Shown here: piece by piece, positions 1 to 19,685 of the stretch
Layout of the letters: every line of letters begins with the position of its first letter
Numbering within the stretch: position 1 is the first letter of the stretch
Source: a virus
Taxonomy: Duplodnaviria > Heunggongvirae > Uroviricota > Caudoviricetes
Length of the DNA: 19,685 bases
Virus record (IMG/VR): IMGVR_UViG_2695420380_000016
Reading direction: 5' to 3' (one strand)
Program-made: the position numbers and the translations under genes
Notes under the pieces: model-generated
Told to the model about the DNA's origin: nothing
The model's input: only the letters and a program-made list of their open reading frames with translations
Databases searched by the model: none

Positions 1-360
1 CACTCTGCCTGTATGTGCCCGTTTCGATGGCGGTACAGCAGGTTTTCGCTCAAGCAACAGCGCATTCTGGCGCATGATCCGGTAAACACGTTTGGCATTG
101 ATCGCAGGCATACCATCAAGTTCTGCCTGTCTGCGAAGCAGCGCCCATACCCGACGATAACCATACGTGGGCAGCTCTCCGATAACATGGTGTATACGGA
201 GAAGCACATCCGTATCATCAGTGTGACGACTGCGGCGGCCATCCATCCAGTCATCGGTTCGTCTGAGAATGACGTGCAACTGCGCACGCGACACCCGGAG
301 ACAACGGCTGACTAAGCTTACTCCCCATCCCCGGGCAATAAGGGCGCGTGCGCTATCCAC
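1..360 (-). CDS. insD: IS2 transposase OrfB (InsD), N-terminal part only; runs off the window
   Basis: Manual minus-strand translation from about 360 downward gives [120 protein letters not shown] with no stop before position 1. Matches remembered InsD. Absent from the ORF track because it has no in-window stop and no ATG start. Confidence 0.75.
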
Positions 361-683
361 TTTTTTGCCCGTCCATATTCAACGGCTTCTTTGAGGAGTT
401 CATTTTCCATCGTTTTCTTGCCGAGCAGGCGCTGGAGTTCTTTAATCTGCTTCATGGCGGCAGCAAGTTCAGAGGCAGGAACAACCTGTTCTCCGGCGGC
501 GACAGCAGTAAGACTTCCTTCCTGGTATTGCTTACGCCAGAGAAATAACTGGCTGGCTGCTACACCATGTTGCCGGGCAACGAGGGAGACCGTCATCCCC
601 GGTTCAAAGCTCTGCTGAACAATTGCGATCTTTTCCTGTGTGGTACGCCGTCTGCGTTTCTCCGGCCCTAAGACATCAATCAT
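318..683 (-). CDS. insC: IS2 transposase OrfA (InsC)
   Basis: ORF 318..728(-) contains [56 protein letters not shown]..., recognised as IS2 InsC. Start placed at the MIDVLG methionine (683), not the upstream in-frame Met of the track ORF. A6G slippery site at 361-367 (minus strand) fits the IS3-family -1 frameshift. Confidence 0.9.
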
Positions 684-733
684 CTGTACTCCAATGACTA
701 GTCTAAAAACTAGTATTAAGACTATCACTTATT

Positions 734-4456: not shown

Positions 4457-5266
4457 TCAATGAACGGTATCGAGCAGCTTTAACAGCTCAGGGAATCGGG
4501 ATTCGAAGAAATGCGGCTGCGTCTCGCGCGGATTTGCGGGACTGGTGATGTTCTTGCCGAACATGCAACCTTTCGCTGTCAGCGACCAGAATTTTTTGAT
4601 GTTGTTAATCGCGGTACGGCTGTATCGTTCGCGCTGCTCGACGATCCCCAGTTTCACCATCTGGTGATATGCCTGATTAGCCGTCAGGCGTATACCATAC
4701 TGTTTCAGCAGTGCGCTCAGTGACAGTGTCGGGCGACTTGAGCCATCGTGTGCATCAGCAGGAGCATCAATGGCATAGCGCGGTGCCAGATTCGGTAAGC
4801 CAACAGCCTCCTGGAGTTTCTGACAGGCACCAAGCACTGAAGAGTTAGACAGGTTTAACTCCCGGCGCATAAAGTCCAGCAGGATCACGCCAGCCTGCAT
4901 CTTGTCAGCAGCCTGTCCGGATAATTTTTCCGGTGCGCTGGTTACCATATCGAAAGTACGGATCACCTTCAGATGGAATGACGGGCTGATCCACATTGCA
5001 TAGGCATACACCAGTTCCTTGCAGACATACGTTCCCCGTTCATTTCCCCCATGAATCACACTCACCGGGTCAACACCCAAATTCTGGGTGTTGGTCAATT
5101 CATGAACAAGCTCAACAGTTTGTTGGCTGGAAAGAAACTTTCCCGGCTCCTTGGTTCTGGCATTTGCACCAGATGCTACTGCTGCGCGATGCAGATCGTT
5201 CAGGCTGTAACGCCCATAAGCATCACGACGAACTTCAATACCATCAATGACCATCAGATTATTCAT
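4457..5266 (-). CDS. KilA-N domain protein
   Basis: N-terminus IEVRRDAYGRYSLNDLHRAA...GGNERGTYVCKELVYAYAMWISPSFHLKVIRTFD matches the KilA-N DNA-binding fold pattern. Strong SD GAGGAG 10 nt upstream of the ATG at 5266. Confidence 0.75.
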   Translation of the reverse strand: MNNLMVIDGIEVRRDAYGRYSLNDLHRAAVASGANARTKEPGKFLSSQQTVELVHELTNTQNLGVDPVSVIHGGNERGTYVCKELVYAYAMWISPSFHLKVIRTFDMVTSAPEKLSGQAADKMQAGVILLDFMRRELNLSNSSVLGACQKLQEAVGLPNLAPRYAIDAPADAHDGSSRPTLSLSALLKQYGIRLTANQAYHQMVKLGIVEQRERYSRTAINNIKKFWSLTAKGCMFGKNITSPANPRETQPHFFESRFPELLKLLDTVH

Positions 5267-9315: not shown

Positions 9316-9942
9316 ATGGAAACGGTTGGTCAGCGTATAAAAGCTCTGAGAAGGGTTACCAGAACGTCCCAGAAAGAATTGGGTAAATTTTGTGGGGTAA
9401 GTGACGTTGCTGTGGGGTACTGGGAAAAAGACATCAATGTCCCTGGCGGGGAAGCACTTTCGAAATTAGCGAAGTTCTTTAATACGTCAATAGATTACAT
9501 TCTTTATGGTGCTGAGTTTGAAGGCAAACTAGTCACAAACATGCGCAGAGTTCCTGTAATTTCGTGGGTTCAGGCTGGGCAGTTTACTGAGTGCAGGGCA
9601 GCAGAAGTGTTTAGTGAAGTGGACAAGTGGGTAGATACATCTTTAAAGATTGGTGATAACTCATTTGCATTAGAAGTTAAAGGCGACTCCATGACTAATC
9701 CTAATGGCCTCCCAACAATACCAGAAGGTGCAACAGTGATTGTAGATCCTGATGCAGAACCTCGTCATGGAAAAATAGTCATTGCTCGACTTGATGGAAC
9801 GAACGAAGCTACAGTAAAAAAATTAGTCATCGATGGTCCTCAAAAGTTTTTAGTGCCATTAAATCCACGGTATCCCAACATCCCAATCAATGGTAATTGC
9901 CTGATCATTGGTGTAGTCAAAGGAGTTCAATACGAACTCTAG
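9316..9942 (+). CDS. CI-type prophage repressor (HTH_XRE N-terminus, S24 LexA-like peptidase C-terminus)
   Basis: 208 aa. N-terminal HTH (QKELGKFCGVSDVAVGYWEKD). Ala-Gly autocleavage site (VQAGQF). Catalytic Ser in GDSM and Lys in TVKKLV, as in lambda CI and LexA. Confidence 0.9.
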   Translation: METVGQRIKALRRVTRTSQKELGKFCGVSDVAVGYWEKDINVPGGEALSKLAKFFNTSIDYILYGAEFEGKLVTNMRRVPVISWVQAGQFTECRAAEVFSEVDKWVDTSLKIGDNSFALEVKGDSMTNPNGLPTIPEGATVIVDPDAEPRHGKIVIARLDGTNEATVKKLVIDGPQKFLVPLNPRYPNIPINGNCLIIGVVKGVQYEL

Positions 9943-13435: not shown

Positions 13436-14055
13436 TGACCACATTTACCAATAAAGAACTGATTAAAGAAATCAAAGAACGAATCAGCAGCCTAGAGGTT
13501 CGAGACGATATTGAGCGCCGTGCTTATGAAATTGCTCTGGCATCGCTGGAAGAGGAGCCGGTGGCATGGCTGCATTCAGACAATGGCTTAGGTATTCCGG
13601 CAATAACCAGGAGCAAAAACATTGCTGACAGTTGGTTATCAATGGGCTGGTATGTTCAGCCGCTATATATAGCCAAGCCAGTACTGGTGGTGCCAGATGC
13701 TCGTCCGTCTTTAAATAATGGCATAGTCGGTTTTGATGAAGGCTGGAACGCCTGCCGCGCCACCATGCTTCATGGTGCCAAACCTGTAAGTCAGACTTAC
13801 AAGTTGAACAAGCTGTCGGGCAACTCTCCGGTAACTCAGGATGGTTGGATAAGCTGTAGTGAGCGAATGCCGAACGATAAACAGTATGTTTGGTGTTGGG
13901 GTAAGTCTTACGGCTGGACTGAGTGCGATACCTTCGAAGGGTATTACGATTGGTCGAGAAACAAATGGTGGGCAGTTACTGACGATGGGGAAGAACCGGC
14001 ATCGAAAGTAACCCACTGGATGCCGCTACCGGAGCCACCGCAGGAGGTGAAGTAA
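13435..14055 (+). CDS. DUF551-domain protein (206 aa)
   Basis: C-terminus ...GWISCSERMPND...VTHWMPLPEPP is the typical DUF551 ending. TAATG overlap with the upstream gene. Confidence 0.65.
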   Translation: MTTFTNKELIKEIKERISSLEVRDDIERRAYEIALASLEEEPVAWLHSDNGLGIPAITRSKNIADSWLSMGWYVQPLYIAKPVLVVPDARPSLNNGIVGFDEGWNACRATMLHGAKPVSQTYKLNKLSGNSPVTQDGWISCSERMPNDKQYVWCWGKSYGWTECDTFEGYYDWSRNKWWAVTDDGEEPASKVTHWMPLPEPPQEVK

Positions 14056-14249
14056 TGAACAACTTAATGACAACTAAACAAGTCGCCGACTTCTGTGGCG
14101 TTTCAGTATCGACCGTTCTTCGCTGGAACAGCGTAAACAGGAGAACTGGCCAGAAATACAGGCCTGACTTTCCAGATCCTGATATTAAATCCTGCCCAAA
14201 TAAATGGGCATCACGCAAGATATACAGGTTTGCTGGAGTTATTGAGTGA
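14055..14249 (+). CDS. AlpA/Xis-family excisionase-like HTH protein
   Basis: 64 aa: TTKQVADFCGVSVSTVLRW...PDFPDPDIK...WASRKIYRFAG has the pattern of AlpA-type excisionases (HTH then FPKP...W). SD AGGAGG upstream. Last gene of the coupled plus-strand operon. Confidence 0.6.
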   Translation: MNNLMTTKQVADFCGVSVSTVLRWNSVNRRTGQKYRPDFPDPDIKSCPNKWASRKIYRFAGVIE

Positions 14250-14284
14250 TGGGTATTAGCTCATATCAGAACTAATACCCATCA
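14247..14284. repeat. perfect 13-bp inverted repeat (hairpin) at the operon end
   Basis: TGATGGGTATTAG (14247-14259), 12-nt loop, CTAATACCCATCA (14272-14284). No U-tract on either strand. A second inverted repeat GACACAG...CTGTGTC lies at 14287-14315. Confidence 0.5.
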
Positions 14285-14451
14285 ATGACACAGAGCCAAC
14301 TACCCACCCTGTGTCAGGGGCTAACTTTTAACACCATAATTCACCGCTAGATAAAAACTGTATTGCATTGCACGAGCGGCGCAGCATTATCAGTTAGAGT
14401 GTCTTTACCTTGTTAGGCTCCACAGTTCGCACTGTCCAACGCCTGTCACTT

Positions 14452-17400
14452 TCACACGCTGCGCCTTCGAGAATATTCATTTAATCGCTGATAACGAACA
14501 TCTTGCTCCAGTTGTGGAGCAGCTTGAACAATTTGAAGCAAGCATTGCCCCAACTCTCGAGGCCCCCAGTGTTGTTCGGCAATCACGGCATTCAGCAGGG
14601 ATAGAGCGTCCGCAGGATATCGGCTGCAAATATCTGATTCTAGCAAAAGGCGAACGTCGTAGCTAAGGTGTTCGAGCGGTTGCAGCCAGTCCTGCACCAC
14701 TGCCAAAGCCGCCGGAAATTCACCTCGGGCAGCAATCACCATACGAGTCAACGATTCGGATATGCGTGGGGTGGCCAAGTTGCGGGACTTTGGCCAAACC
14801 TGTTGCCAAAATGGCTGGACACGATTTTTCCAATACTCCTCGCGCTGATCGCCCGCACCTTCAAGTGCCTGGTATAACGCCTGCGCGGCTACCTCCAGAC
14901 CTTCTTGTGGAAGAGCACTAATTGCCGTTCGGAACTCCTCCACGGTATATCCCTCGGTAGGGCCCAGAGCTGCATAAGTCAGGAAAGTAGCGAATTGCTG
15001 CCGGTGCTCGCCAAGATCAGAATAGTGATTGGCGCTCTCCAAAAAATCTGACTTGAAAGCTATCAGCAACGGTTCATACAGGCGTGGCGACCAGAGGAAG
15101 CCTTCCCACACAGCTTTTGCTTCGACGGGATTACTCCAAGCAAACAAGGGCAATAGATACTGTTCGGTCCAAGGTCGATCTACGCGAAAAAATGCGATCA
15201 GCCGCGACCCCAGCAACACCCGACCATGGCGGAATAGCTCTATCTGTACATTACACAATTTGGTGAAAAGTGTTTTCAATTCAACAGGAAGCAAATCATT
15301 GTCATTCGGGTTCTGTTTGAACCATAGGGTGATCAGTGATTGCGTGACATGCCCAATGGGATGATTGATCGCCGTAGAAACAGGATCATAGGTCTCAATT
15401 CCGTTTCGAATGGTGCTAGACTCTGGGCTTGTTTCTATCATCAGAACCCGACGACAAAGGGCCAGTAGAATCTCCTCGTGGCAGAGGATGGTCTTCGAAG
15501 CCTCCTCCATCCACCAAGTGACAGCGTGGGAAATCTCCTGAAGTACTGCGTCAGGCATGTCAAGCACCAACGGTGCGGCGTACCGCCACGAACGCAAAAT
15601 CATCCCTGGTTCAGCCCAAGTCTGCAGAGCTTCACGCCACCGACCAACAGGCCACACATCATCTTGTGATAGTTTACTTAACGCATACAGACTGTGAAAA
15701 AAGCGCGTACGGCAAACATCACTCCAAGTGTCCTCATAGAAAGGCAGTCTTTCTGGCATAGGCTTTGCGAGCCATTGCACTAATTCCTGCCACTTACGGG
15801 GCGCAATGTCGACATCTATACTCTCCTCGAAGCCTGGATCACCGGTTCCGCTCATCCAGTGAGAGAATTCATCACGCTCGTTGGTTGCCAGTTGCCATTT
15901 TGGGTATGCTGTGGATATTTCCGTCAAACGTGTAGCCGCAGACTCTCCCAAAACAAGGCCCGCTCCCCTGAGCTTCGCTAGACACAACCAGACGGAATGA
16001 GCCACCAAATAATGCCACCTGTCTGCTTCCAAATTATCCTCGTACATCTCGCGCGGAGGCCCTGCCAAGATAGCAGTTTCCAGACGCTCTTGTGCAATTC
16101 CTGTCAGATGTCGTCCCTGCAAAACAAACAGTCTGAATACCTCTCGCCTAGTATCCGTGGCCCACAACCACCATGAACCGTCCTCTAACAACCAATTAAC
16201 CCACCGCTCAGGTGGTATGCAGTTGTCTTGGCTTGCGGCAAACAGTGCCAGACGTTTGAAGGTGGGATATGGCAACTCAAACCAATTCTGAGCAATGCGC
16301 GTGGCCTGATCGCTGTCTTTGGATCGAACGGCTAACCATGAATCCCGAAGTAATTCAATCAGGCTCACCCAATCGCGGAACCCCCGGTTCTGCCAGTGCG
16401 GAGTGATGGACGGCAAATCCCAATGCGAGCGGTCGTGACGATCGTCGGACTCTCCCAACTCCCGCAACAAGTCCAGTGCATCACGCAACAACTGCTGAAA
16501 ATCTTCCAACAGGTATGGCAAGGACGATTTCCATGACTCGTCAGCAAGGTCGAACAGGGTTGAACGTACGTAATCAGCAGTCAGCACCAGCTCCCAATCC
16601 ACCAATTGCTTGATTCGCAAGGGTTCATCAGTGCTGCTCGAATCGTCTTCACTATAGCGAAACGGCCGCCTCAACATAACCTTGGGAGAAAGCAACTCGC
16701 GTAACTCCAAGCGCAATGTAGTCGTCAAGCCTTCATTCTTTAAGCGGTTTTGCCAACGATACAAATCCAGGTTCTGCAATGGCGATTTCACACGACCACT
16801 AAGCAGAAGCCGCCATAAAGTAGACATAGGTGGACCAGGAATAGCCAGGGGGGAATGCAAGAGAATTTCATCTAACTCAGAAGTCTTACGCTCCCGCATC
16901 AGTGCTGCTAAGCGATCTAGTTCGCTCTCAATCAGAAACATCCAACGGTCGTGTATTTGTCCGCCGCGTTCAGCAATCCATATGATCAACCTAGGGTCGC
17001 CCAGATAACGAACTAGCCAACGGGCTATATGGGACATTACGTCATCCCATTTGCTAGCACTGACACATCCAGAAACCAGCGACATCTGCGGGGCCAGCTC
17101 ATAGGGCGCAGGACGCTGAACCAGACTGAATCGGAGTTTCGGGTCAATTTCGACATGCGGAGATACACAAAAGCGTGGCAGATCGCTGTATTTAAATCGT
17201 TCGTCCGAGAAAGCTTTCAATAACCAATCCAGCGGCGGTGCAGGATTGAGTTCCGCAAAGCGTTTTGCTGGTAAACCTGATTTATCTGACAAGGCCCACA
17301 ACATCCGACCAACGAAATCGTCCTGACGAGTGCTGTCCTGCGGGCGGGCCAGAGCATGTTTGACGACTATAGCCTCTTTGCCCTGTATACCATCTCGATA

Positions 17401-18279
17401 AGTATCTGCCCAAGCGTGCAACGTTTGATGCAGCACTGAATGATCAGTGGAGCCCGCCGGTACGGTGTAAAGGATAGGAGTGACCCCTTTGGCCTCCCAC
17501 TCGATGGCTTTCCGGTGCTCCTGCCCCGGCTCACACTCCCCCAGTGCCCATACTTGTGGTGTGACTTCACCGAGCCTCCGATCTGCTGCAAGCGCATCCA
17601 TCATGTAGCGCAGTACCGGGTCGTTGATGCTGTAGCCAACGAAGCAGACCACATAGTTACGAAATAACTCACTCACAAAGCGAGCTGCCCAACGCTCAGT
17701 GAGATAAGCCAAGCCAAAGTCACCGCTGGTAACAACCAGACGATTCAGGGCAGTATCATCCGCCTTTTCCGGTAACAGCCCATGCAGGTATACAAGTCCA
17801 TCCCAGCGGCTGTTTTTTGGAATTGGCAGCATCGGCGCTACATAGGCCTGAAAAGCCTGGCCTGTACGTTTAGCTGCCACATGAAAGAGACGGTCAAAGT
17901 TGGTAGTGACCAATCGAAGGGCACCCTCGCGGCTACGGGCTAAACGTAACAGCGCCGCCTGAGTATCAATAGCGCCCCTACGACGGAGCTTTGGCTTAAG
18001 GGCTTTTTCCAACGCGCGTCGGACGGCTATACGCTGCCCTGGTAAGCGCCGTTCCAGCAAATCTAATGTGCCGTCAAATTGCCCACGCTCGAAAACCTCA
18101 CGCTCAATTTCTGAAAGTGTTGTTCCGTTCCTCTGGTAAATTAGTTCTACCAACCCTTTGAAACCAGGTAAACCAGCAGGGTAGGAAATGCCTGCTCCAC
18201 AGAAGAACACAACGCGCCCTTCCTCGTGCGCCTGCAAAAGCTCATCAGGAATATCAGGGCCGTTGGTAATGAATTGCAT
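14452..18279 (-). CDS. SIR2-like domain fused to a large helical C-terminal domain (1275 aa); candidate DSR-like antiphage NADase
   Basis: N-terminus carries SIR2_2-type motifs in order: VVFFCGAGISYPAGLPGFKGL (glycine-rich NAD loop), VTTNFDRLFH (catalytic Asn), VYLHGLL (catalytic His about 40 residues later), FVGYSINDPVL. The remaining 950 or so residues are helical and Trp/Leu-rich with no Walker A motif. Strong RBS GGAGGAAAAGGA before the ATG at 18279. Candidate -10 TATAAT on the minus strand at 18342-18347. Confidence 0.8.
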   Translation of the reverse strand: MQFITNGPDIPDELLQAHEEGRVVFFCGAGISYPAGLPGFKGLVELIYQRNGTTLSEIEREVFERGQFDGTLDLLERRLPGQRIAVRRALEKALKPKLRRRGAIDTQAALLRLARSREGALRLVTTNFDRLFHVAAKRTGQAFQAYVAPMLPIPKNSRWDGLVYLHGLLPEKADDTALNRLVVTSGDFGLAYLTERWAARFVSELFRNYVVCFVGYSINDPVLRYMMDALAADRRLGEVTPQVWALGECEPGQEHRKAIEWEAKGVTPILYTVPAGSTDHSVLHQTLHAWADTYRDGIQGKEAIVVKHALARPQDSTRQDDFVGRMLWALSDKSGLPAKRFAELNPAPPLDWLLKAFSDERFKYSDLPRFCVSPHVEIDPKLRFSLVQRPAPYELAPQMSLVSGCVSASKWDDVMSHIARWLVRYLGDPRLIIWIAERGGQIHDRWMFLIESELDRLAALMRERKTSELDEILLHSPLAIPGPPMSTLWRLLLSGRVKSPLQNLDLYRWQNRLKNEGLTTTLRLELRELLSPKVMLRRPFRYSEDDSSSTDEPLRIKQLVDWELVLTADYVRSTLFDLADESWKSSLPYLLEDFQQLLRDALDLLRELGESDDRHDRSHWDLPSITPHWQNRGFRDWVSLIELLRDSWLAVRSKDSDQATRIAQNWFELPYPTFKRLALFAASQDNCIPPERWVNWLLEDGSWWLWATDTRREVFRLFVLQGRHLTGIAQERLETAILAGPPREMYEDNLEADRWHYLVAHSVWLCLAKLRGAGLVLGESAATRLTEISTAYPKWQLATNERDEFSHWMSGTGDPGFEESIDVDIAPRKWQELVQWLAKPMPERLPFYEDTWSDVCRTRFFHSLYALSKLSQDDVWPVGRWREALQTWAEPGMILRSWRYAAPLVLDMPDAVLQEISHAVTWWMEEASKTILCHEEILLALCRRVLMIETSPESSTIRNGIETYDPVSTAINHPIGHVTQSLITLWFKQNPNDNDLLPVELKTLFTKLCNVQIELFRHGRVLLGSRLIAFFRVDRPWTEQYLLPLFAWSNPVEAKAVWEGFLWSPRLYEPLLIAFKSDFLESANHYSDLGEHRQQFATFLTYAALGPTEGYTVEEFRTAISALPQEGLEVAAQALYQALEGAGDQREEYWKNRVQPFWQQVWPKSRNLATPRISESLTRMVIAARGEFPAALAVVQDWLQPLEHLSYDVRLLLESDICSRYPADALSLLNAVIAEQHWGPRELGQCLLQIVQAAPQLEQDVRYQRLNEYSRRRSV

Positions 18280-18461
18280 TCCTTTTCCTCCTATCCAATG
18301 TGCACGTTCATTCGAGTAAATGAAGGCAAGGGGTTACATCTTATTATACCGACCGTGCAAATCCGGCTTCCTAGCAAGCTACTTTACTTGCCAACTCATA
18401 ATGTCCGAACTCCGAACAAAGCGGACTGCTAGATTTGATTGCGTTCTAGCTACGCAAAATA

Positions 18462-19685
18462 TCATTTCGAGCCTGAACGAGTACAAGTAACAATCGATTC
18501 AACTCTCTCCCACCATGCCTGGTAGGCTTTACGCTGTTCTTCTAGATAATCACTCTTGTCATAAACTTGCCATACACCTGGCAGTTTATGACCGAGCATT
18601 ATTTCAGCAATATGAGGCGCAGTAAGATCAGAAAAGTTTGTTCGTGCTGTTCGTCTCAAATCATGAAGAGACCAATGAGGAAATTGATACCCCAAACGCC
18701 GCCATGCGTACTGCATTAAATTGTAAGGCAGCGACTGCAATGATGTCCGACCAACTGGTTCCCTGCTTCCTTCCTTAGTAAAAAGCATATCGGAACCGTT
18801 GTTCATAGAGATAACGTATTTTATAAGCTCTTCAACCGGTTCAATAATGGGCCGCTTTAGCGGTTCGCCTGTTATATCCCCTGTCTTATGTCGTTCTGGT
18901 GGTACAGTCCATATTTTATTAATGAAATCAAAATCGTCCACCTTGGCAGTAATTAGCTCTGAACTACGGCAACCAAAATGCAGCAATAGTTTAATGAAGG
19001 CCCGGTATTTAGGAACCATTCGAGAACCATCGATCGCAGCATAAAGGATTTTAATTTCATCATGTGTCAGAAACCGTTTCTTCTGACCTTTACGGATATC
19101 CATATCTTTACCCGTGATATCCGACAGCGGGCGAGTTTCAATGAGCTTTCTCTTATACGCCCAGACATGGGCCTGCTTTGCGTTAATTAGCAATCGGTCT
19201 GCTATTGCTGGAGTCTTAGTGCTAAGAGGCTCCAGGACTTCTAACCAATCATGCAATGTAGCTGCATCGTGAGGGATATTCCCGATTTTAGAGAACAGGT
19301 GCAGCTCAAACGAGCGGAGTATCTGTTCAGAACCTTTTTTATTTTTTACACAATATGCTTCATACCAAGCACGGATCACAGATTCTACCGTCATGGCTTC
19401 AGTAGCTTTACGTTTTTCTGCCAGCTTGACCAATCGTGGATTGCGGTTTGACTCGAGTTCACCACGAAGACGGATAACTTCTTCTCTGGCCTCTTTTAGT
19501 CCAGTTGCCGGGTAAGTTCCGATATCAAGACGCTCACCTTTCCCCGCCCACTGATAACGATATTGGAACACTACGCGACCTTTCGGTGATACTCTAACAG
19601 ACAGACCATCACGATCGGATTTAACCAAAACCTTATCACGTTCCTTTCCAACAACTGAACGCAACCACGCATCAGACAGCGCCAT
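18462..19685 (-). CDS. tyrosine integrase, P4-like (DUF4102 arm-binding N-terminus plus catalytic domain)
   Basis: 407 aa. N-terminus MALSDAWLRSVVGKERDKVLVKSDRDGLSVRVSPKGRVVFQYRYQWAGKGERLDIGTYP fits the P4-family arm-binding pattern. C-terminus has catalytic-domain motifs (HDLRRTARTN..., GHKLPGVWQVYD with the Tyr). The ATG is the last three bases of the window, so upstream signals and att are outside. Confidence 0.85.
   Translation of the reverse strand: MALSDAWLRSVVGKERDKVLVKSDRDGLSVRVSPKGRVVFQYRYQWAGKGERLDIGTYPATGLKEAREEVIRLRGELESNRNPRLVKLAEKRKATEAMTVESVIRAWYEAYCVKNKKGSEQILRSFELHLFSKIGNIPHDAATLHDWLEVLEPLSTKTPAIADRLLINAKQAHVWAYKRKLIETRPLSDITGKDMDIRKGQKKRFLTHDEIKILYAAIDGSRMVPKYRAFIKLLLHFGCRSSELITAKVDDFDFINKIWTVPPERHKTGDITGEPLKRPIIEPVEELIKYVISMNNGSDMLFTKEGSREPVGRTSLQSLPYNLMQYAWRRLGYQFPHWSLHDLRRTARTNFSDLTAPHIAEIMLGHKLPGVWQVYDKSDYLEEQRKAYQAWWERVESIVTCTRSGSK

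Follow-up and report, generated by a model that had tools for sequence, protein, structure and literature searches.

The 19,685-nt stretch analysed here (the window) is IMG/VR virus record IMGVR_UViG_2695420380_000016, assigned to the Caudoviricetes, and constitutes the early region of a lambdoid prophage. Between an integrase gene and an excisionase-like gene lies one large gene, dsr1, encoding a protein of 1275 amino acids (aa). Dsr1, also written DSR1, stands for defence-associated sirtuin 1 (Gao et al. 2020). The initial annotation of this DNA had described an intact open reading frame (ORF) with ordered SIR2_2 motifs, followed by a helical, tryptophan-rich C-terminus without a nucleoside triphosphatase (NTPase) motif, and these points are borne out. 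The frame runs uninterrupted from ATG to TGA, and GAGIS (residues 28-32), TTNFD (125-129), LHG (165-167) and GYSIND (215-220) follow one another in the order described. SIR2_2 is the sole Pfam family detected in the protein, with E=8.9e-23 and 81.4 bits (gathering score 24.5); neither a Walker A motif ([AG]xxxxGK[ST], motif scan) nor an NTPase Pfam match was found in the 1275 residues. There are 43 tryptophans in the ~975-residue C-terminal region (4.4%, compared with 1.7% in the first 300 residues), and the structural model of this region is all-helical, with moderate confidence.

Family models identify the protein as Dsr1 over its full length. It scores 2060.5 bits (cutoff 1400) against the NCBIfam equivalog NF041818 (“anti-phage defense-associated sirtuin Dsr1”), with residues 1-1271 aligned to profile positions 1-1263 of 1263, and 2735.6 bits against the PADLOC Dsr1 model PDLC02183, which is matched end to end over positions 1-1275 of 1275. 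A second PADLOC Dsr1 model, PDLC04167, is matched with E=7.4e-195. The earlier reading of the gene as a DSR1/DSR2-like, single-gene SIR2 antiphage system agrees with these models and with RefSeq, where near-identical genes carry the name dsr1. NCBI already holds the exact protein as ‘MULTISPECIES: anti-phage defense-associated sirtuin Dsr1 [Enterobacteriaceae]’; it has been recorded on 25 contigs. At 90% identity it falls into a cluster with 418 members, which come from E. coli and Shigella sonnei. The accessions under which this sequence is filed (CSP.../CSQ...) and the Shigella sonnei names of several cluster members hint at Shigella as a possible origin of the window. Judged by its sequence, the protein is a standard allele of Dsr1, the product of a defence gene that has already been named and studied experimentally.

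Among 5426 complete E. coli genomes, 76 contain the gene, and 72 of these have a match, always chromosomal, over at least 80% of its length. Nucleotide identity reaches at least 99% in 67 records, with a maximum of 99.9%, and the E. coli loci among the matches listed are annotated as dsr1 in RefSeq. The exact allele was not found among the complete E. coli genomes searched. A stretch of the Stx2c-converting phage Stx2c_JNE082796 is 99.9% identical to the gene. Compared with the RefSeq alleles WP_039720274.1, WP_001159683.1 and WP_001159680.1, the window protein differs at 4-6 residues, located between positions 397 and 1098; all of these fall in the C-terminal sensor and none in the SIR2 domain. 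The protein thus resembles known Dsr1 in its length, its N-terminal SIR2_2 domain with invariant Asn and His, its full-length sensor, its single-gene organisation and its E. coli/Shigella host range, and differs from it at the allelic level only.

Within the SIR2 domain, T125, N127, D129, H166, G167, G215, Y216 and D220 are invariant in 82 homologues sharing 36-56% identity with the window protein; they include N127 and H166, the two residues that had been proposed as catalytic. The best match of the domain among solved proteins, in both sequence and structure, is the SIR2 NADase (an enzyme hydrolysing nicotinamide adenine dinucleotide, NAD+) KomC. In a HMMER alignment TTNFD lies opposite TTNYD and YLHG opposite KFHG of KomC, and by residue count H166 pairs with KomC H146, the position mutated in PDB entry 9xvc (“KomC(H146N)”), so that the motif residues align to catalytic positions of a solved enzyme. 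A Foldseek search with a model of residues 1-330 returned solely the defence SIR2 NADases KomC, DSR2 and ThsA among its best 42 matches. This model is of low confidence (predicted local distance difference test, pLDDT, 56), and we treat its fold matches as supporting evidence only, because their template modelling (TM) scores are ~0.3.

A search with the sensor alone (residues 300-1275) in a set of 5.8 billion proteins returned 2896 proteins. The best 120 of these share 75-99% identity with it, nearly all carry SIR2_2, and they derive from Enterobacterales, Vibrio, Rhodocyclales and other Proteobacteria. An exhaustive HMMER search of 1.84 billion 50%-identity cluster representatives gave 2784 clusters at E ≤ 0.001, of which 867 reach E ≤ 1e-30. 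For the best 150 of the 2784, the matched proteins are typically ~1250 residues long and align with the sensor from about residue 300 onwards, the layout seen in Dsr1. Since the best matches share this layout, the C-terminal region is, as far as sequence comparison goes, the known Dsr1 sensor with its thousands of homologues, and the option of a new sensor, which the initial annotation had left open, falls away. The AlphaFold2 model of the sensor is all-helical (mean pLDDT 63, predicted TM score 0.42), with good quality in the last ~440 residues and poor quality in the first ~280. Single-sequence and 82-sequence profile searches of PDB sequences with the window protein recovered SIR2 domains only. 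Both structure models were built from homologues at least 75% identical, which accounts for their low pLDDT values (63 for the sensor, 56 for SIR2), and we regard the fold results as weak for this reason.

Table 1. Features of the dsr1 locus and of the corresponding slot in sister phages. Coordinates refer to the window unless a locus (L) is named; L010 is the Vibrio and L013 the Rahnella locus.
Feature	Coordinates	Strand	Remarks
dsr1 coding sequence	14452..18279	-	1275 aa plus TGA stop; uninterrupted ORF, ATG at 18279
N-terminal SIR2 effector domain	17380..18279	-	~residues 1-300; Pfam, PDB profile and fold matches
Pfam SIR2_2 match	17473-17913	-	residues 123-269
Asn127 codon	17899..17901	-	TTNFD; predicted catalytic or NAD-binding, family-invariant
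His166 codon	17782..17784	-	YLHG; predicted catalytic histidine, family-invariant, opposite KomC His146
C-terminal sensor region	14455..17379	-	residues 301-1275; all-alpha, Trp-rich
Ribosome-binding site	18287..18292	-	AGGAGG, 7 nt before ATG
Candidate -10 hexamer	18343..18348	-	TATAAT, perfect; no convincing -35
Conserved upstream region	18280-18390	-	aligned with L013 4890-5000 and L010 4900-5000
Tyrosine integrase	18462..19685	-	407 aa; conserved backbone
Excisionase-like helix-turn-helix (HTH) gene	14055..14249	+	64 aa; conserved backbone
LexA/cI-type repressor	9316-9942
Variable cargo module	14300..18416		~4.1 kb; dsr1 only, unrelated genes in related phages
Hairpin at xis border	14247..14284		16-nt arms, 94% complementary; overlaps xis stop codon, just inside conserved backbone at cargo border
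Hairpin at int border	18439..18457		just past int stop codon, other cargo border
Alternative slot gene of sister phage	L003 13669-14388	-
Alternative slot genes of sister phage	L004 15259-16392; L004 14803-15168	-
Alternative slot gene of sister phage	L005 12545-14098	+

The ribosome-binding site described as strong in the initial annotation is the hexamer AGGAGG. The accompanying candidate promoter stands in part: a perfect TATAAT is present, but it has no recognisable -35 element, and a sigma-70 scan called no promoter on that strand ahead of the gene. The ~110 bp preceding the start codon, which include both TATAAT and the ribosome-binding site, are conserved between the window and a Rahnella homologue, and largely in a Vibrio homologue, in entirely different genomic contexts. 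The conserved 5' leader reads ‘CTCATTT.CTCGAATGAAC.T.CACATTGGATAGGA’. We infer that dsr1 is expressed from this TATAAT-containing region, and a leader of this length and conservation could carry regulation beyond a plain promoter.

Distant homologues occupy dissimilar surroundings. In Vibrio cholerae (L010 1-13825), a homologue with ~77% sensor identity is embedded in a Tn7-like element with TnsA-like, rve and TniB genes, adjoining a Csy4 gene and a VspR-like regulator; dsr1 is therefore also cargo of a CRISPR-associated, transposon-like island. The Nitrogeniibacter homologue has an ATP synthase operon on one side and a chemotaxis gene on the other, and that of Rahnella is found in an island with an integrase and insertion sequences (IS). 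No neighbouring gene is conserved across these three loci. Gene and upstream region travel as one unit, which fits a single-gene system, and dsr1 appears to work without a conserved partner gene.

In the window, the order of genes leftwards from the right end is integrase, dsr1, the excisionase-like gene, two DUF551 genes, a YfdR-like HD hydrolase and YfdQ (DUF2303), then the LexA/cI-type repressor, cro and a CII-like gene; beyond these come genes for replication, a methyltransferase, RusA-type, KilA-N and DUF968 genes and antiterminator Q. The label excisionase-like is based on an HTH_17 match below the Pfam cutoff and on the annotation ‘excisionase’ of a homologue in phage 2H10. A near-identical prophage in E. 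coli adjoins yjjG. The flanks of the dsr1 module are common to the phages 2H10, PhiR63_1 and Stx2c_JNE090279 at 95-96% identity. Homology to related lambdoid phages ends at ~14289-14299 and restarts at ~18417-18480, and dsr1 is the sole gene between, in line with the single insert originally proposed. The same slot in these three phages holds unrelated genes of 239 aa, 377 + 121 aa and 517 aa, none of which has a Pfam or PADLOC match. This homology break, together with the unrelated genes in the slot, indicates that dsr1 is a 4.1-kb exchangeable cargo module. The alternative slot genes are candidates for new defence or superinfection-exclusion genes, because the slot holds a defence gene in the window.

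A hairpin is found at each border of the cargo. The one overlapping the xis stop codon is a possible terminator or recombination-prone border, and the one past int is probably the int terminator, which would separate transcription of int from that of dsr1. Both may serve as terminators insulating the cargo or as landmarks for cargo exchange. Membership in the Dsr1 family, intact catalytic motifs, the lack of a partner gene and the status of dsr1 as cargo are direct observations of the present analysis.

Two further features of the window lie outside the dsr1 module. Positions 1-774 are absent from near-identical prophages, whose match starts at 775, and have matches at thousands of sites on chromosomes and plasmids of E. 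coli; the ORF at 318-728 (minus strand) is an HTH_Tnp_1 transposase orfA. Because of this distribution and gene content, the left end is assigned to an IS3-family insertion sequence that the edge of the window truncates and that has inserted near the holin region of the prophage. PADLOC found no other defence genes in the window except for a domain-level match: the 269-aa protein encoded at 4457-5266 (minus strand), KilA-N in RefSeq relatives, weakly matches the candidate system PDC-S22 (E=1.7e-5) over 37 residues, which probably reflects a shared domain and not a defence system.

We consider it very probable that the locus is explained by dsr1 residing as self-contained cargo in the int-xis slot of a lambdoid, Shiga toxin (Stx)-converting-type prophage of E. 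coli/Shigella, where it would provide defence through NAD+ hydrolysis. The lysogen would produce Dsr1 constitutively, driven by the region upstream of the gene, and the protein would stay inactive until infection. On infection by another phage, the ~975-residue helical sensor would bind a phage protein, which for the published EcDsr1 is newly made major capsid protein. Binding would switch on the N-terminal SIR2 domain, NAD+ would be hydrolysed via Asn127 and His166, and the loss of NAD+ would stop phage replication, protecting the lysogen population and hence the prophage.

For the defence phenotype, the effect on NAD+ and the trigger, this scheme draws on published work with near-identical or homologous proteins, and the window allele would be expected to behave in the same way. 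The dsr1 gene of E. coli ECOR17, together with 300 bp of upstream sequence, makes MG1655 resistant to a T4 derivative, so that a single gene suffices for defence; T4 nrdC.5 breaks this resistance (PMC9391042). In Bacillus, DSR1 depletes NAD+ upon phi29 infection (bioRxiv 10.1101/2021.12.14.472415), and phages can counter DSR1 through the NAD+-reconstitution pathways NARP1 and NARP3, which restore NAD+. The sensor of EcDsr1 (WP_029488749.1) is reported to be homologous to that of Avs7 (Nature 2026, PMC13581612). In a screen of 73 genes, the major capsid protein of phage ZL19 was the unique activator of EcDsr1-mediated cell death (PMC13581612), and EcDsr1 defends against a few Drexlerviridae phages (PMC13581612).

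Several points weigh against this explanation. The window allele may not be the very protein used in the published experiments, be it EcDsr1 or that of ECOR17, and its specificity could differ, given that 4-6 sensor positions separate it from three RefSeq alleles. Four additional RefSeq loci have accessions other than that of EcDsr1. No canonical sigma-70 promoter was called upstream of dsr1 by the consensus scan on that strand. NAD+ depletion by Bacillus DSR1 is transient and cultures do not collapse (bioRxiv 10.1101/2021.12.14.472415), so ‘abortive infection’ may misdescribe the outcome. Confidence in the predicted sensor structure is only moderate (pLDDT 63). Neither the profile search nor the fold searches of solved structures, the latter with this sensor model, found an Avs7-like chain. 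Among the matches listed (best 120 and best 150), homologues are all of Dsr1 architecture, a family large enough to fill these ranks.

The differences between alleles also bear on the trigger. An allele with private sensor substitutions might sense a phage component other than the major capsid protein. All of its differences from the RefSeq alleles fall in the sensor, and the contrast between the narrow Drexlerviridae range of EcDsr1 and the block that ECOR17 Dsr1 imposes on a T4 mutant hints at allele-specific or broader ranges. We regard a different trigger as improbable, however, as 4-6 substitutions in 975 residues are very little, and the alleles are more than 99.5% identical and form one 90% cluster of 418 members.

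A DSR2-like protein would be an alternative to Dsr1. DSR2, defence-associated sirtuin 2 of Bacillus subtilis, senses the phage tail tube protein and is inhibited by DSAD1. Like Dsr1, it combines an N-terminal SIR2 NADase with a long helical sensor in one gene, with loss of NAD+ upon recognition of a phage structural protein. Its SIR2 domain is the structurally nearest neighbour of that of the window protein after KomC, and chains of DSR2 rank near the top of the structural matches to the latter. The published trigger differs, being the tail tube protein for DSR2 and the capsid protein for EcDsr1. The 82-sequence profile matches DSR2 chains solely at SIR2 residues 18-144, which argues that the sensor is unrelated to that of DSR2 at the sequence level. 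PADLOC Dsr2 models do not match the window protein, and membership in DSR2 was rejected. The structural comparison with DSR2 suggested in the initial annotation placed no DSR2 chain among the fold matches of the sensor (model pLDDT 63). The Dsr1 sensor has no detectable similarity to DSR2, and a tail-tube-sensing, DSR2-like protein, already refuted at the sequence level, deserves hardly any credence.

Other defence systems share parts with Dsr1. Avs7 is a STAND NTPase pattern-recognition receptor (SeAvs7 of Salmonella enterica). Its bilobed helical sensor is reported to be homologous to that of Dsr1, with the major capsid protein of phages as activator in either case (PMC13581612); Avs7, however, couples a STAND NTPase to a Cap4 nuclease, whereas Dsr1 has no STAND NTPase and a SIR2 NADase as its effector. 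Membership in the SIR2-STAND (Avs5-like) or Avs7 families was rejected, there being no Walker A motif and no Pfam match besides SIR2_2. ThsA (type I Thoeris) and KomC/HAM-SIR2 belong to multi-gene systems, in which they are activated by small-molecule signals or partner proteins. They share the SIR2 NADase fold and catalytic Asn/His motifs with Dsr1 and differ in lacking the ~975-aa sensor, so that only the SIR2 portion matches. Thoeris ThsA, which is marked by a SLOG/STALD signal-binding domain and a ThsB partner, was rejected as an assignment, its PADLOC models matching the SIR2 part only (E=3e-5 and 3e-3); no TIR gene of the ThsB partner type occurs near dsr1 in the window.

That the protein is a housekeeping or regulatory sirtuin, a protein deacylase with a scaffold domain, can practically be dismissed: NAD-dependent deacylase models and the sirtuins of human and yeast match the protein weakly (E 0.007-0.18), at its N-terminus and over just ~40 residues of the NAD-binding GAGIS region, the domain is SIR2_2, of the defence-type branch, the gene is accessory (76/5426 E. 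coli genomes) and always found in mobile or variable contexts, and direct defence phenotypes have been published for E. coli dsr1 (PMC9391042).

Dsr1 is already known: it has a name and a curated NCBI model, it is detected automatically by PADLOC and PGAP, and it has been tested experimentally. Experiments of the kind proposed in the initial annotation have already been published for E. coli Dsr1 or close relatives. What is added here is the invariance of the catalytic residues across 82 homologues, the lack of DSR2 similarity in the sensor, the mobility of the gene together with its ~110 bp upstream region as a unit, and a variable slot with uncharacterised alternatives. A point worth noting is how a capsid-sensing Dsr1 is compatible with the capsid of its carrier prophage. 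Because a prophage building an HK97-fold capsid here carries a sensor of major capsid protein, the sensor-only substitutions might be tuned to spare the capsid of the resident prophage and yet recognise incoming siphophages; we think this rather unlikely. If true, self/non-self discrimination among capsid proteins would be encoded in an exchangeable int-xis cargo slot, and the genes without annotation that sister phages carry at this site would probably represent new superinfection-exclusion systems. The value of the finding is modest and lies in its context, with Dsr1 as exchangeable int-xis cargo of a lambdoid, Stx-converting-type prophage family in which the same slot of sister phages offers three unannotated genes as candidates for new defence functions.

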